Source: an uncultured Gammaproteobacteria bacterium
GTDB taxonomy: Bacteria; Pseudomonadota; Gammaproteobacteria; CAZDOC01
Assembly: GCA_964506945.1 (NCBI GenBank)
Contig: CAZDOC010000002.1
Coordinates: forward strand, 42,834-106,833
Length of the DNA stretch: 64,000 bases
Direction: 5' to 3'
Shown: one piece after another, positions 38,747-61,058 of the stretch
How the letters are laid out: each line of letters starts with the position of its first letter
How positions within the stretch are numbered: position 1 is the stretch's first letter
The notes under the pieces: generated by a model
Told to the model about the DNA's origin: nothing
The model's input: only the letters and a program-made list of their open reading frames with translations
Databases searched by the model: none
Made by a program: the position numbers and the translations under genes

Positions 38747-39973
38747 GTGGCGCGTTATCGCTACAGCGGCAGGAAGGGCGACGGCGAGGCGGTCGATGGC
38801 GTGCTGGAGGCGGTCTCCACCGACGCGGTGCTGGTGCAACTGGAGGGCTTCGGCATCATCCCGCTGGAGATCGACCGGGTCGGGGGTGAGGACGACACCG
38901 GCAACGCGCCGGTCAGCCTGTTCAGGAAGCGGCCGGACCTGACCGAACTGATCCTGTTCACCCGGCAGATGTACAGCCTGATGCATGCCGGGGTGCCGAT
39001 AAACCGCGCCATGATCGTCCTGATCCGCTCCAGCCGCAACCCGATCCTGATCGAGGCGCTGAAGGAGATCCACGCCCAGCTCGAATCGGGGCGGGAGCTT
39101 TCCAGCGCGATGTCGCTGTATCCCGGTATCTTTCCCAGTCTTTATGTCAGCATGGTGCGGGTGGGCGAGAACACCGGCCGTCTGGATGAGGCCCTGATGC
39201 GCGTCGCCGGTTATCTGGAGCGGGAAAAGGATACCCGGCAGAAGGTCAAGTCGGCGCTGCGCTACCCCTCGTTCGTGCTCATCGCCATCGCCGCCGCGGT
39301 GACCATATTGAATATCTTCGTGATCCCGGCCTTCAAGACCATCTTCGAGCGCGCGCACACGCAACTGCCGCTGCCGACCCGGATCCTGATCGGTACCTCG
39401 GACTTCTTCGTCGACTACTGGGCCGGGATGCTGGTGGTCGTGGTGCTGGCGGTCATCGGCGCGCGCTGGTACGTCGCCACCGAGCGGGGGCGCTATCGAT
39501 GGGATCGTTACAAGCTGCGCATCCCCATCGCCGGCAACATCATCGAGCGCGCGGTGCTGGGCCGCTTCGCGCGCGCCTTTGCGATGGCGACCTCGGCGGG
39601 CGTGCCCCTGTTGCAGACACTTGCGGTTTTGTCGAAAGCGGTCGATAACGAGTACATCGGTGGACATATAGCGGACATGCGCCACGGCATCGAACGGGGC
39701 GACACCCTGACCCGCACCGCCGTGGCCACCGGCATGTTTTCACCCCTGGTGATCCAGATGCTCAGTATCGGCGAGGAGACCGGGGCGGTGGATGACCTGA
39801 TGGTCGAGGTGGCGGATTTCTATGAACGCGAGGTGGACTACGACGTCAGGAATCTGAGTACCGCGATCGAGCCGATCATGATCACGGTGATCGCGGTGAT
39901 GGTGTTGATCCTGGCCCTGGGTATCTTCCTGCCGATGTGGGACCTGGCCAGCATCAGTTTCCGGCACGGCTAG
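38747..39973 (+). CDS. mshG: MshG platform protein (GspF/PilC family).
   Basis: The 408-aa product has a duplicated GspF-domain architecture with three transmembrane segments and follows mshE. Confidence 0.88.
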   Translation: MARYRYSGRKGDGEAVDGVLEAVSTDAVLVQLEGFGIIPLEIDRVGGEDDTGNAPVSLFRKRPDLTELILFTRQMYSLMHAGVPINRAMIVLIRSSRNPILIEALKEIHAQLESGRELSSAMSLYPGIFPSLYVSMVRVGENTGRLDEALMRVAGYLEREKDTRQKVKSALRYPSFVLIAIAAAVTILNIFVIPAFKTIFERAHTQLPLPTRILIGTSDFFVDYWAGMLVVVVLAVIGARWYVATERGRYRWDRYKLRIPIAGNIIERAVLGRFARAFAMATSAGVPLLQTLAVLSKAVDNEYIGGHIADMRHGIERGDTLTRTAVATGMFSPLVIQMLSIGEETGAVDDLMVEVADFYEREVDYDVRNLSTAIEPIMITVIAVMVLILALGIFLPMWDLASISFRHG

Positions 39974-40137
39974 GAGCCTGTCGGATTTAGGCGATTGTAG
40001 CGAGGGGAAGCCTTTTTGAGTCAGATTTTTTGGTCATTTGAGGAGAATAGTGAGCCTATTTAACGAGAATGAGCGGAAAATCTGGCCAAAAGGGCTTTTC
40101 CGCAGTAGATCTGTCCTAAGTCCGACAGGCTCCTAGG
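39970..40137. repeat. 168-bp low-GC intergenic element bounded by 22-bp inverted repeats (21/22 match). It may be a MITE-like insertion or a structured regulatory element.
   Basis: Left arm CTAGGAGCCTGTCGGATTTAGG (39970-39991). Right arm CCTAAGTCCGACAGGCTCCTAG (40116-40137), its reverse complement except for one T/C. The 124-bp spacer is visibly AT-richer than the flanks and contains an internal 8-bp hairpin GCGGAAAA...TTTTCCGC (40073-40103). Confidence 0.6.
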
Positions 40138-40164
40138 CCGTGGTGAAGTGATCGGGGACGGTAC

Positions 40165-40689
40165 ATGGCGGGTCTGAATCGCAACCTGTCGCGACTGGAA
40201 CTGGCCTTGATGATCATGGTGATCGCCCTGCTGGTCGCGATGGCCATCAACCGGACCTCGGTGTTGTTCGTGGAGGCGGAGCGGCTGTCCGTGGACATGA
40301 CCCTGAACAGCCTGCGCAACGGCATCACCTACTACACGGCCGAGAGGATGATGCTGGGGCAGATGCGGCAACTGGCGCAGCTGGATGGGGCCAATCCGGT
40401 GGGCCTGGTGATCGTGGCGCCCAAGGGCTATCGTGGGGCGATCAACCCGGGCCAGGGCCAGAAGTTCGAGCCGGGGGACTGGTATTTCGACAAGGACCGT
40501 GGCGTGCTGGTGTACCGGGTGGTCAACCCCGAGCGCCTGTGGAGCGAGGACGGGGACAGCAGCAGGCTGGAGTTCAGGCTCAAACTGGATTACAGGGATC
40601 GGAACGGCAACGGCCGGTATGACCCGGGGATCGACAGTATCATCGGCCTCAGGCTCGTGACCCTGCATCCCTACCGCTGGGAGATCTGA
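40165..40689 (+). CDS. MshF-like protein (putative).
   Basis: The 174-aa product has an N-terminal hydrophobic helix (LELALMIMVIALLVAMAI) but no canonical G/FTLIE prepilin motif. It sits between mshG and the major pilin gene, where mshF lies in Vibrio. Confidence 0.45.
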   Translation: MAGLNRNLSRLELALMIMVIALLVAMAINRTSVLFVEAERLSVDMTLNSLRNGITYYTAERMMLGQMRQLAQLDGANPVGLVIVAPKGYRGAINPGQGQKFEPGDWYFDKDRGVLVYRVVNPERLWSEDGDSSRLEFRLKLDYRDRNGNGRYDPGIDSIIGLRLVTLHPYRWEI

Positions 40690-40735
40690 GGCGGTTTCGC
40701 AATCGACAGTGTGACAATACAAGAGGTGCAAGACA

Positions 40736-41181
40736 TGAACGGCAAGCAGCAAGGTTTCACCCTCATAGAACTGGTACTGGTGATCACCATCCTCGGTATC
40801 CTGGCGGCCTTCGCCATCCCGCGTTTCGCCGGCATCGAGACCCAGGCGCGCATCTCGGTGATGCAGGGCGTGGCCGGCTCACTGGAGGCGGCCGCGGCCC
40901 TGGCCCATGCCAAGCAGCTGGCGCAGGGGGTCTCCGCCGGTGGAAATATTTCTATGGAAGGCATCACCATCAATATGGTCAATGGCTATCCCAGTGCCGC
41001 AGACATTGACAAGGCAATACGTACAGGGAGCAATTCCAAAATACTTTCCAATAGTGCGGGAACATTTAATTATAGTGGTTTCCTAAGTTGTTCGGTGCAA
41101 TACACAGAGGCTCCGGCCACCCCGGCCGGCTCACCACCAACAATCATAACGACGAATCTGACAACAGCGAATTGTGAATAA
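40736..41181 (+). CDS. mshA: MSHA major pilin (type IVa prepilin, MshA/MshB-like).
   Basis: Prepilin leader MNGKQQG|FTLIELVLVITILGILAAFAIP with Glu5. C-terminal disulfide loop C...C. The 3' half of the gene is low-GC and the tail is Ser/Thr/Pro/Ala-rich (TEAPATPAGSPPTIITTNLTTANCE). Confidence 0.85.
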
Positions 41182-41201
41182 CAACAACAAATAACACCCA
41201 T

Positions 41202-41228
41202 GAGGCTGCGATTGCAGCCTCTTTTTTA
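41202..41228 (+). terminator. Rho-independent terminator after the major pilin gene.
   Basis: GAGGCTGC-GATT-GCAGCCTC stem-loop followed by TTTTTT, 21 nt past the pilin TAA. Confidence 0.75.
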
Positions 41229-41298
41229 TACGCCTGCGCCTGGGTGTGCCGGTGCAAGGCGATCCGGCGGTTTTCCGGCCGTGAAGGAGACCGGATAC

Positions 41299-43239
41299 TT
41301 GGCATCGACACGCACATCCCCGGCCCTGGCCCTGCCGGCCGTGGCCCTGGCCCTGGCGCTGTGGTACCAGGGGTTCACCCTGCTGCCGGTATGCGCGGTG
41401 CTGGCCGTGCTGCTGCTGGGCCTGCTGGTCGGCCCTGGCCGGCGGCACCGGCGCTGGACCTGGCCACGGCCCGATGCCCTTGTCATCAGCCTGTCCCTGT
41501 TGCTCGTCTGGAGCGCCTGGATCACCCTGAGCGGTCCCGGCCGCCTGCTGGCCCAGTATGGCCTGCTGGTCTGCGGTGTGTTCGCCAGCGCGCTGCTCTG
41601 CGCCCTGCTGGCCTCCCGGCAGCGGGCCTGGTGGCCGCTGATGGTGCCGGTGTCGCTCGTCGTGCTGGCCGAGGCCCTCTACGGCGGCTGGCAGTTCCTC
41701 GCTGGCCAGGGTCCGCCACGGGGGCTGTTCGTGCAGCCGAACACCCATGCCGGCTGGTTGCTGCTGTTCAACCTGCCCCTGACGGCCCTGGCCGCGTGGC
41801 TGCGGCGGTATCGCAGGCGCAGCTGGCCGTGGGTGCTGGCCGGGCTGGCCCTGCTGGACCTGAATATCGCCGCCTCGCTGAGCCGTGGCGTGGCCCTGGC
41901 GCTGTCGGCGGGGCTGCTGGTCCTTGGCGTGAGTCTTCCGCCAGGCTGTCGACGCGGCCTGTTGATCCCCGTGGTGCTGGTGATCAGCGCCTACGGTCTG
42001 GTCGATGTCCTGGACGCCGGCCGGGTGGCCGGGCGCATGGACAGCGGCCTGGCGAGCGTGGGCCGCCTGCTGCTGGATAGCCAGGAGGATGGATCCCCGG
42101 CGACGGGGCAGGGGGATTCCATCCGCGCGCGCGTGCTGATCTGGCGGGGGGCCTGGCGTATGTGGCGGGAGACCCCCTGGCAGGGCTGGGGCCTGTACCG
42201 CTTCCGGCTGATCTATCCCCGCTTCCAGTCCGATGCGGATCAGAGTGCCGGGCAATATGCCCACAACGAGCTGCTGCAATTGTTACTGGAGATCGGTCTA
42301 CCGGGCCTGTTGCTGGTGCTGTTGAGCATGGTCCTGGTTGCCAGGCGGGGCTGGAAGCGTCTGCATGGCCCCGGCATGGACGAGGCCCGGCGTTGTGAGA
42401 TCGCCGGTCTGCTGGCGGCGATGGCGGCGATCTCCGTACACAGCCTGCTGTCCTATGATTTCCATATCCTGCCGGTGCTGCTGGTCGTGGGGCTGATCAC
42501 GGGGCGTTACCTGGACCGGGTCAGCATGGAGGCATCGGTTTCTGAGCGCATGACCGTGACGGGGGGGCGGCCCGGCCGCCGGCCGGCCCGGATCCTGTTG
42601 CTGGCGATCCTGCTGGCGCTGGCGCTACCCGCCGGCATGGCCTGGTATATGGGCCAGGCTCGGGCGGCCCTGGCCCGGGGCGATCTGGCCGCGGCCGAGC
42701 AGGCCCTGGGGCGGGCGGCCATGCTCGATGATACCGACGAGATCGCCCATGCGCGCGCCTTGACCTATATCGAGGCACTGAAGGCCCTGCCCGGGCGGGA
42801 TGAGAGACGCCCCAGGCTGTTCCAGTGGGCCATGGACAGCCTGGATGCGGCCGCGCGCATGAACCCGGAACTGGCCGCGGTGCCCTGCGCCCGCGGACTG
42901 TTGTTCGCCAGGGCCCCGGGGCTGGCCGGGCGGGATGCCTACCGGCGTGCGGAGGATGCATTTCGTCAGGGCCTGCGCCTGGCACCGAGACAGTATCTGT
43001 GCCGCCTGCACTATGCCCGCCTGCTGTTGCGGCTCGGACGCAAGCCACAAGCGCGTACCCTGCTGGAGGCCGGCCTGCCCGCCGGTCTGCCGGATGCTGC
43101 CGGGATCATCCCCTATGTGCAGCTGTTGATCCGCCTGCGCCGTGACATGGGGCAAGCCGCCGCCGCGGAGCGCCTGGCCCGGCGCCTGCTGAACTTGCGC
43201 GGGCACTGGCGTAACATAGGCGCCGGTACGCGGATATGA
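41299..43239 (+). CDS. O-antigen ligase family (Wzy_C) protein with a C-terminal TPR region: a putative pilin O-oligosaccharyltransferase (PglL/TfpO-like).
   Basis: Ten or more transmembrane helices. Wzy_C signatures SLSRGVALAL and the periplasmic loop YAHNELLQLLLEIGLPGLL. The C-terminal roughly 200 aa are Ala/Arg/Leu-rich and TPR-like. It lies immediately downstream of the pilin gene, the same arrangement as P. aeruginosa pilA-tfpO. The start is set at the TTG at 41299, which follows a GAAGGAGA Shine-Dalgarno sequence. The track's ATG at 41200 lies inside the terminator. Confidence 0.7.
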   Translation: MASTRTSPALALPAVALALALWYQGFTLLPVCAVLAVLLLGLLVGPGRRHRRWTWPRPDALVISLSLLLVWSAWITLSGPGRLLAQYGLLVCGVFASALLCALLASRQRAWWPLMVPVSLVVLAEALYGGWQFLAGQGPPRGLFVQPNTHAGWLLLFNLPLTALAAWLRRYRRRSWPWVLAGLALLDLNIAASLSRGVALALSAGLLVLGVSLPPGCRRGLLIPVVLVISAYGLVDVLDAGRVAGRMDSGLASVGRLLLDSQEDGSPATGQGDSIRARVLIWRGAWRMWRETPWQGWGLYRFRLIYPRFQSDADQSAGQYAHNELLQLLLEIGLPGLLLVLLSMVLVARRGWKRLHGPGMDEARRCEIAGLLAAMAAISVHSLLSYDFHILPVLLVVGLITGRYLDRVSMEASVSERMTVTGGRPGRRPARILLLAILLALALPAGMAWYMGQARAALARGDLAAAEQALGRAAMLDDTDEIAHARALTYIEALKALPGRDERRPRLFQWAMDSLDAAARMNPELAAVPCARGLLFARAPGLAGRDAYRRAEDAFRQGLRLAPRQYLCRLHYARLLLRLGRKPQARTLLEAGLPAGLPDAAGIIPYVQLLIRLRRDMGQAAAAERLARRLLNLRGHWRNIGAGTRI

Positions 43240-59762: not shown

Positions 59763-61058
59763 CTAGCCCCGCTTGTCGATAGCACAGTAATAGAAGCCAT
59801 CCCGATCGGATTCCCCCGGTAATACCTGGCGGCCATAATCGCGCTCGTGACCATACTCCGGCGCCAGCGGTGGCAGGCTGGCGCCGGGCAGGCAGGTGAG
59901 CAGGCCCGCGATCATGCGGTCGTTTTCCTCCGCCAATACCGAGCAGCTTGCATAGACCATCCTGCCTCCTGCCCGCAGCAGGGGCCAGAGGGCCAGGACC
60001 AGGCGCCGCTGGCGTGCCGCAAGGGTAGCAATATCCCCACTCCTGCGCAGCAGCTTGATGTCGGGGTGACGGCGGATGACCCCGGTGCCGGAGCAAGGCG
60101 CATCGATGAGGATCCGGTCGAAGTCCTCGCCGGCGGCCCATTCCCCGGGCCGCGTGGCGTCACCGAGGCGGGTCTCGGCATCCAGGCCCAGACGCTTCAG
60201 GGTTTCTTCGAGGCGTTGCATGCGACCTGCATCCGGATCCAGGGCCAGGAGCCGCCGCAGTTCCGGTTCCGACTCCAGGATATGGGCGCTCTTGCCACCG
60301 GGGGCGGCACAGGCATCCAGGACCTCCAGTCCCGGGCGCAGGTCCAGCAGTGGGGCCACGGCCTGGGCGGCGGCATCCTGGACCGAGACCGCGCCCGTGG
60401 CAAAGCCCGGCAGGCGGTCCACATCCAGCGCCCGGGCCAGGGTGATGCCGTGGCGGGTGTGCGGCGCCGGGGCGGCGGCGATACCGCTGGCGGCGAGACG
60501 TTGCAGGTAATCCTCACGCTGGTGCTGGCGCGCATTCACGCGCAGGGTCATCGGCGCCCGGCGGTTGTTCGCGGCCGCGATCGCCTGCCAGTCGTCGGGC
60601 CAGTCCCGGCGCAGTCGGCGCAACAGCCAGCCGGGGTGGGCGTAATGGCAGGTTTCTGATTGCCGGCACGCCTCGCGCAGGGCATCCTGTTCCCTGATGG
60701 CGCGGCGCAGCACCGCATTGATCAGGCCGACGCTCCAGGCTTTGCGCAAGCCGCGTCCGGCCCCGGCGGTGGCCGAGACCACGGCATGGGCGGGGGTGTC
60801 GAGATGCAGGATCTGATACAGCCCGATCAGCAGCAGCGCCTGAACATCGCCATCCTTGCCGCGCAAGGGTCGTTCCAGCAGTCCTTCCAGCAGCGAACTC
60901 AACTGCGGCTGCCAGCGCAGCACGCCATAGCAGAGTTCGCGCGCATGGGCGCGGTCCCTGGATTCGGTGAGCCGGGCCAGCGGGGCCAGGCTGCTATCCA
61001 GCGAGCGACCGGTGCTGACGGCGGCGATGGCGCGGGCGGCGATGGCGCGGGCATCCAT
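59763..61058 (-). CDS. rsmB: 16S rRNA (cytosine967-C5)-methyltransferase RsmB.
   Basis: NusB-like N-terminal domain followed by a SAM methyltransferase (LDACAAPGGKSAHIL, DRILIDAPCSGTGVIRRHPDIK). It is downstream of fmt. Start set at MDARAIAARAI. Confidence 0.85.
   Translation of the reverse strand: MDARAIAARAIAAVSTGRSLDSSLAPLARLTESRDRAHARELCYGVLRWQPQLSSLLEGLLERPLRGKDGDVQALLLIGLYQILHLDTPAHAVVSATAGAGRGLRKAWSVGLINAVLRRAIREQDALREACRQSETCHYAHPGWLLRRLRRDWPDDWQAIAAANNRRAPMTLRVNARQHQREDYLQRLAASGIAAAPAPHTRHGITLARALDVDRLPGFATGAVSVQDAAAQAVAPLLDLRPGLEVLDACAAPGGKSAHILESEPELRRLLALDPDAGRMQRLEETLKRLGLDAETRLGDATRPGEWAAGEDFDRILIDAPCSGTGVIRRHPDIKLLRRSGDIATLAARQRRLVLALWPLLRAGGRMVYASCSVLAEENDRMIAGLLTCLPGASLPPLAPEYGHERDYGRQVLPGESDRDGFYYCAIDKRG

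Follow-up and report, generated by a model that had tools for sequence, protein, structure and literature searches.

Between mshG and mshF, in the mannose-sensitive hemagglutinin (MSHA) pilus locus of contig CAZDOC010000002.1, lies a short sequence with inverted repeats at its ends. We analyzed it within a 64,000-nucleotide (64-kb) stretch of this gammaproteobacterial contig, which we call the window. The comparisons below make it very probable that this sequence is a 161-bp noncoding miniature inverted-repeat transposable element (MITE). A DDE transposase of the IS1182 family of insertion sequences (ISs) most likely mobilizes it in trans. The upstream gene, at 38747 to 39973 on the plus strand, encodes MshG, a GspF/PilC-family platform protein (NCBIfam GspF, 1.4e-100) whose homologues are named MshG by JGI. 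The gene in the MshF position, at 40165 to 40689 on the same strand, encodes a 174-aa protein with no family match. An MshE-type ATPase with a cyclic di-GMP-binding domain is encoded farther upstream, and pilins are encoded downstream.

A preliminary description of this DNA had placed a 22-bp inverted repeat at the mshG-mshF junction. We found that 39970 to 39991 (CTAGGAGCCTGTCGGATTTAGG) is indeed the reverse complement of 40115 to 40136, with 21 of 22 positions pairing. The right arm had been set one base too far to the right, at 40116 to 40137, and the spacer is 123 nt rather than 124 nt. A search of the window for the 22-mer, allowing up to three mismatches, returned only the two arm sites, with 0 matches expected (100 shuffles). 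The core of each arm is 19 nt, and the arm reaches 22 nt when the CTA or TAG is counted. The spacer had been called AT-rich, and its GC content is 0.439, compared with 0.654 for the window; that of the element is 0.476. The plus strand has no open reading frame (ORF) of 40 aa or more inside the element, in agreement with the earlier remark that it contains no ORF. Two minus-strand ORFs that overlap it (40060 to 40752 and 40116 to 40328) are frames opposite mshF. An 8-bp hairpin had also been proposed within the spacer. The pair GCGGAAAA/TTTTCCGC is present, at 40073 to 40080 and 40096 to 40103, but both the minimum-energy fold and the fold supported across the repeat family described below pair each segment with the opposite arm instead. 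What had been missed is that the palindrome, an imperfect one, takes in the entire element, with 72.8% self-complementarity across 184 positions.

The MITE proper spans 39973 to 40133, with the plus strand as its sense strand. It begins with the left terminal inverted repeat (GGAGCCTGTCGGATTTAGG, 39973 to 39991), a sequence that also ends IS1182-family elements, and it finishes with the right terminal inverted repeat (CCTAAGTCCGACAGGCTCC, 40115 to 40133), both on the plus strand. A TA dinucleotide flanks the element on each side, at 39971 to 39972 and at 40134 to 40135, and each TA sits within a CTAG (39970 to 39973 and 40133 to 40136). The TAG stop codon of mshG (39971 to 39973) falls within the left CTAG, as the preliminary description had it. 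Against a covariance model made from 45 family members, the window copy reaches 162.4 bits on the plus strand (E = 4e-38) and 67.9 bits on the minus strand, and a scan of the 64 kb with this model found one family copy. A 13.7-bit match at 59857 to 59888 on the minus strand (E = 0.11, 84% GC) is short and weak, and we do not count it as another.

The element belongs to a large repeat family. Two scans were made, one with the 20-nt end pattern AGGAGCCTGTCGGAYTTAGG over one genome per species and the other with a 5'-arm pattern over metagenomes, and each matched at least 120 loci. Our family counts refer to full copies among the matches listed in both scans. At least 104 full copies (98 distinct sequences) were present, nearly all of them 161 to 163 bp long, in Gamma-, Beta-, Zeta-, and "Delta"-proteobacteria and in Nitrospirota. 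The family is spread over several phyla, mostly in uncultured bacteria of sediment, hydrothermal, and saline settings. Some metagenome-assembled genomes (MAGs) hold several copies, with at least four in S141_33 and at least three in MFD09779.bin.2.228. Isolates carry the element as well. Among the matches listed, Pseudomaricurvus alcaniphilus has two copies with one differing position across the displayed ends, and Massilia glaciei also has two; Oceanobacter antarcticus has one decayed full-length copy. Internally deleted copies and solo-end remnants are common, and one such remnant is in Thioalkalivibrio denitrificans. Many hits are found about 100 to 125 nt from the end of a contig, a typical position for repeats at which assemblies break, and the many copies at contig ends indicate that the family breaks short-read assemblies. 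We found no family copy in 5,426 Escherichia coli genomes. The family occurred in 1 of 72,556 plasmid records, a Pseudomonas plasmid, and a search for carriage by phages gave one hit among 2.9 million viral contigs. Neither the end nor the core sequences were found in the literature searched as a described element. The family is new, although of a known kind. The Geobacter sulfurreducens primer OmcE_fwd (GAGCCTGTCGGACTTGGAAAT) starts with 17 nt of the element end, with one mismatch (PMC11077965, Table 2). By its sequence, this match hints at a family copy or a related IS upstream of or near omcE.

The target site could be read from the flanks of 103 copies. The form CTA...TAG was present in 58 of them, and TA stood on both sides in 69, including the window copy. 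The variants were CTA/TAA (five times), TTA/TAG (twice), ATA/TAG (twice), and others. The first (G) and last (C) bases of the element were invariant, and the outer flanking bases varied. Because the inner bases are constant and the outer ones vary, a 2-bp duplication of TA within a preferred CTAG appears to be the simplest reading, more parsimonious than a 4-bp duplication of CTAG. Other IS1182 members are reported to make 4-bp duplications, as for ISPse1 (PMC3281130) and for ISPsy36, where it is GGCC (PMC8027508). A CTAG target means that the flanking TAG is often the stop codon of a neighboring gene. This is so in 30 of 104 copies, with mshG as one case, and insertion on TAG stop codons is a strong habit of the family. 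At mshG the host flanks themselves (39963 to 39969 and 40137 to 40143, CACGGC...GCCGTG) are complementary, so that before insertion the stop codon stood in a CACGGC-TAG-GCCGTG palindrome. A preference for palindromic target contexts was considered and rejected, with a flank complementarity of 1.99 of 8 in 100 family copies and also 1.99 after shuffling. Since flank complementarity in the family is at chance level, the palindrome at the mshG stop looks coincidental.

The ends of the family are shared with IS1182-family elements. An identical end (CTAGGAGCCTGTCGGACTTAGG), present at many contig ends of MAG H1-B1 (JBOIEG01) and also in a small number of other genomes, has the C terminus of a transposase next to it on the inner side. 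The frame inward of this end finishes ...EPVFGIIKAVMRFRQFLLRGVDAVRGEWLLVTMAWNIRRLAVLAG* and matches the C terminus of IS1182-family transposases (NF033551, 2e-13; PF13751, 2e-9). The same MAG carries full MITE copies too. In contigs of Synergistaceae and Aminivibrio and in a JGI contig (loci L100, L005, and L256), the N terminus of the transposase, with its DUF772 domain, comes after the identical end. The ends GCAGCCTGTCGGACTTAGC and the flanks cTA...TAg are also seen in two IS copies, each about 1.4 kb long. Their ORF pieces are colinear with NF033551, and they are frameshifted and internally shortened. In the IS copies with GCAGCCTGTCGGACTTAGC ends (L130, 1124 to 2527; L131, 6 to 1446; L129, 2672 to 4374), the transposase lies in two or three overlapping frames and lacks about 80 residues of the family model, and an IS630-type (DDE_3) element breaks up the copy in L129. 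Many entries in the databases derive from such copies and are C-terminal ORFs of 66 aa.

The same ends also enclose short interiors that are unrelated, of at least four kinds. Such sharing would follow if the ends are what the transposase recognizes. A second nonautonomous element has the same terminal repeats and an unrelated interior (CACAAAAG...CCCCCTTTGAAAAAGGGGG...) and was seen at L103 (62 to 389; MAG CBDUZI01), L089, L094, L006, and L086. In L103 it forms a head-to-tail tandem with a 165-bp period, and a TA is shared between copies. On the Pseudomonas sp. MPC6 plasmid pMPC6-328K (L121, 4001 to 4496), a family copy abuts an IS1182-family remnant through a shared CTAG. The transposase C terminus of this remnant reads toward the junction, and both the copy and the remnant are unannotated. 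Insertion remakes CTAG at both junctions, which accounts for the tandem array in L103 and for the copy abutting the remnant on pMPC6-328K. We also considered whether the MITE interior derives from the subterminal regions of the ISs, and rejected this on finding no similarity between them by eye. The family ties nonautonomous elements to the little-studied IS1182 family.

A comparison with orthologous MSHA loci had been proposed, and we carried it out at the loci of the three nearest MshG orthologues (87, 84, and 64% identical). Their mshG-mshF spacers are 29, 21, and 7 bp long, and the element is absent from all three junctions. The window without the element and one TA has a spacer of 28 bp, close to the 29 and 21 bp of the orthologous loci. 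MshG (...SFRHG*) has its last residue where these orthologues have theirs, the 87% identical one among them. On the 3' side of the element, the original spacer and the GGGGA ribosome-binding region are kept before mshF. The same insertion is present in two read-set assemblies that encode an identical MshF and apparently come from the same organism. Because the orthologues lack the element and near-identical assemblies have it, we take the insertion, on these sequences, to be specific to the lineage of the window organism. The two contigs with the identical MshF (L123 and L124; Logan SRR9849954 and SRR9849955) begin within the element, which fits assembly breaks induced by a repeat, and they differ from the window by single bases in the element and the spacer.

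The preliminary description had offered a MITE-like mobile insertion as one of three readings, and this is the one that the comparisons strongly support. The element is short and noncoding, has terminal repeats and a duplicated target, is present in many dispersed copies and absent from orthologous sites, and shares its ends with an autonomous IS1182-family element. Its GC content of 0.48, in a host of 0.65, also counts for this reading. Several observations weigh against this interpretation. An intact IS with a single ORF and the exact end at both termini was not recovered, and the complete copies are either degenerate or cut by the end of the locus. The 64-kb window itself holds no transposase and no second copy, and a tblastn search of it found no IS1182-like coding sequence. 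The duplication is possibly the 4-bp CTAG, as in the published IS1182-family elements. Last, the plain MITE model leaves a conserved, strand-asymmetric fold unexplained.

We suggest the following history for the insertion. An IS1182-family DDE transposase would recognize the 19- to 22-nt terminal inverted repeats and move the MITE in trans. The element would have entered the CTAG to which the mshG stop codon (TAG) belongs, with duplication of the central TA. MshG is unchanged, and the 28-bp spacer and the mshF ribosome-binding site still lie downstream. The element is now a passenger of the msh operon and would be transcribed as a hairpin of about 70 pairs with no U-tract. Its effect on msh is most probably small, although cleavage by an RNase III-type enzyme or a changed coupling of mshG and mshF may occur.

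The fold sets this element apart from a plain MITE. As RNA, the plus strand from 39960 to 40146 forms a single long hairpin with an energy of -114.4 kcal/mol (z = -14.6), whereas the minus strand reaches -78.2 kcal/mol. An RNAalifold consensus from an alignment of 45 copies has 63 pairs, and 46 of them show compensatory changes. For this structure, paired cells amount to 94.1%, compared with 78.1% after shuffling. The covariation score is 0.471 versus 0.178 for shuffled alignments (0 of 500 reach it), and slid controls gave 0.08 to 0.13. Both sides have changed in 29 of the 31 pairs of the long central helix. The sense strand, which carries GTAGCGAGG first, is the better-folding one in 97 of 98 copies when RNA parameters are used (mean, -93.8 versus -80.2 kcal/mol) and in 95 of 98 when the energy parameters are those of DNA. 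In the consensus pairs, G·U occurs 423 times and A·C 62 times, with several of the G·U pairs at fixed positions.

The internal loops are nearly invariant, and the invariant interior bases of the family (G33, A34, A97, and A135) lie in predicted loops. On the plus strand of the window, the 5' internal-loop motif GTAGCGAGG is at 39997 to 40005, with G40002 and A40003 invariant in 45 copies and predicted to be unpaired. The GA of this motif faces the GCA of the 3' internal-loop motif CCGCAGTAG (40100 to 40108), in which A40104, opposite the 5' GA, is invariant. A GAG with a bulged A lies at 40018 to 40020. Its Gs pair with the CC at 40086 to 40087, and both pairs are G-C in 44 of 45 copies. The bulged A is at least 90% conserved but not invariant, and the second G is invariant. 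The center, TTTGAGGAGAATAGT-GAGC-CTATTTAACGAGAA (40037 to 40069), contains the apical stem-loop and GA-rich internal loops, and A40066 within it is invariant. The conserved center has the consensus UUUGAGGCGMAUAGU...CUAUNNAACGARAA. In the pMPC6 plasmid copy, the ends have diverged, with matching changes on both arms, and the interior motifs are kept.

Three readings remain compatible with this fold: an RNA that benefits the element and not the host gene, a requirement for single-stranded DNA in transposition, and upkeep of the palindrome by template switching, together with selection on loops that bind a protein. The rod may be a previously undescribed structured module, most likely RNA, that is carried on IS1182-type ends across phyla and has a function of its own, rather than being a by-product of palindromic ends. 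We hold this idea, which comes from the alignments, only tentatively. Such a module would bind a protein, be processed, or control transposition.

One reading, compatible with the MITE interpretation, is that the transposon carries a functional structured RNA as its conserved hairpin core. The sense rod, with its GA-rich internal loops and fixed G·U pairs, would bind a protein or be processed, for example, by RNase III. In the window, the stability or processing of the mshG-mshF transcript would then be affected. We consider this reading doubtful. Several features of the fold speak for it: the compensatory and covarying pairs, the advantage of the sense strand by a mean of about 14 kcal/mol, the excess of G·U over A·C, the invariance of loop bases as against the varied pairs of the long helix, and the interior motifs retained in the Pseudomonas plasmid copy. 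The sense strand is also the msh coding strand in the window. Orientation relative to the host genes speaks against it. We counted orientation in 104 copies, with gene calls filtered by codon-position GC, and among copies with codirectional flanking genes found 19 sense and 17 antisense; among stop-codon insertions, the numbers were 18 and 12. A cruder gene call had suggested an orientation bias (18 sense versus 8 antisense), which did not hold with better calls and twice the copies. Because of the 19-to-17 count, we dropped the argument from orientation for an RNA acting in host transcripts. Also unfavorable are the lack of a promoter-like site in the element and the Rfam search, in which the window copy and 14 others matched no family and gave only weak, hairpin-like chance matches to microRNA precursors. 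Furthermore, template switching in imperfect palindromes could yield compensatory changes without selection.

Alternatively, the strand-specific hairpin could be a requirement of transposition in cis, in that one DNA strand folds when the element is excised or integrated, or in that the transposase or a host factor recognizes the loops. The conservation would in that case come from selection for mobility and not from a host function. Selection for transposition is the simplest account of conserved nonautonomous copies, and an orientation independent of host genes fits it. The sense strand is also favored with DNA parameters, and the spacing of the conserved motifs from one end mirrors that from the other. 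Nonetheless, we consider a cis requirement unlikely. The ISs and the other nonautonomous elements share the ends and have unrelated interiors, and because the same ends bound unrelated interiors, the core is not needed for end recognition. Single-strand intermediates are not known for DDE transposases of the IS1182 or IS5 type. Orientation relative to the GC skew of the flanks, which would reveal a replication-strand bias, is only weakly biased (49 of 79, P = 0.04), too weakly to be accepted as one. A likeness between TAGCGA and the CS-6 motif found in single-strand origins, and one between the rod and single-strand promoters, were also considered and set aside, as the copies are chromosomal and unoriented and have no -35 or -10 boxes. 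The conserved, strand-specific fold raises the question of whether the passengers of transposons can carry structured RNAs.

A feature regulating the MSHA pilus at this locus, such as an operon boundary, an attenuator, or a terminator, is very improbable. It would be suggested by a very stable hairpin between two genes of one operon, and the preliminary description had proposed both an operon boundary and a cis-regulatory RNA structure in the mshG-mshF transcript. However, the same junction lacks the element in the three orthologous loci, and the element occurs at more than 100 unrelated loci, so that neither proposal is supported as a feature of the locus. We found no promoter-like site in the element and no terminator-like site in 39970 to 40136. 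The hairpin is followed by GGCCGUGGUGAAG and no U-tract lies directly 3' of it, which excludes an intrinsic (Rho-independent) terminator. In the Vibrio cholerae MSHA locus, moreover, the boundary between the secretory and structural genes lies after mshF and not before it. For the MSHA locus, a false lead is thus removed: the hairpin is a recent passenger insertion and not pilus regulation. The element would still form a very stable hairpin inside the mshG-mshF transcript, as the fold predicts, and this passenger may nonetheless alter how the transcript is processed. That the inverted repeat is a chance palindrome has a negligible probability and is refuted by the 0 expected matches, the z-score of the fold, and the family-model score, with nothing further in its favor than the single copy in the window.

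Two observations concern the pilin cluster downstream. A 679-aa ORF at 41200 to 43239 on the plus strand lies within it and has no NCBIfam match. Its close homologue in the near-identical Logan contig L123 (646 aa) has the same position after the pilin gene and carries Wzy_C (O-antigen ligase-like) and TPR domains, from which we suggest that the product may be a pilin glycosylation enzyme. In and after the first pilin gene (40711 to 41181), GC content falls to 0.48 (40701 to 40800) and to 0.39 to 0.50 (41001 to 41200), in surroundings of 0.65. This dip may mark a variable or exchanged major-pilin region.

Among known systems, the closest autonomous relatives are ISs of the IS1182 family (NF033551; Pfam DUF772, DDE_Tnp_1, and DDE_Tnp_1_6), for example, ISPse1 and ISPsy36. 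Their terminal repeats are identical or nearly identical to those of the window element (GGAGCCTGTCGGACTTAGG, GCAGCCTGTCGGACTTAGC), and they have the same cTA...TAg flanks. They also share a palindromic tetranucleotide target, which is GGCC for ISPsy36 (PMC8027508). The window element differs in being 161 bp long, in lacking a transposase, and in an interior unlike the IS subterminal sequences that we saw.

By target, the closest described nonautonomous analogue is MITEPsy1 of Pseudomonas syringae. MITEPsy1 is IS5 related, 100 nt long, and restricted to Pseudomonas; it makes a 4-nt duplication at a CTAG/YTAA target, and its transposition has been demonstrated (PMC3189936). The likeness lies in a small noncoding element with inverted ends of about 18 nt, a CTAG or YTAA target, and presumed mobilization in trans by a related IS. 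However, MITEPsy1 has its own ends (GGAAGGTCTGAAAAAGCC), and no conserved structured core has been reported for it. The repetitive extragenic palindromic (REP) sequences and REPINs, which are associated with the Y1 transposase RAYT, are likewise intergenic palindromic repeats with a GTAG tetranucleotide, and two GTAGs occur in the window element. We rejected this identity, because both GTAGs are on one strand and do not form GTAG...CTAC, and because the window family has true terminal repeats, a TA duplication, and DDE-type autonomous relatives.

The Correia elements of Neisseria and the ERIC (IRU) elements of enterobacteria resemble the window family in being MITE-like, TA flanked or intergenic, and about 100 to 170 bp long, and in being often cotranscribed with their neighbors. 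They share no sequence similarity with it. The window family also differs from them in spanning several phyla, in having an identified autonomous relative, and in a fold that is strongly one stranded with an unbiased orientation. Correia and ERIC elements fold as long RNA hairpins that can be processed by RNase III or RNase E, and in their behavior within transcripts they are the closest analogues of the element between mshG and mshF.

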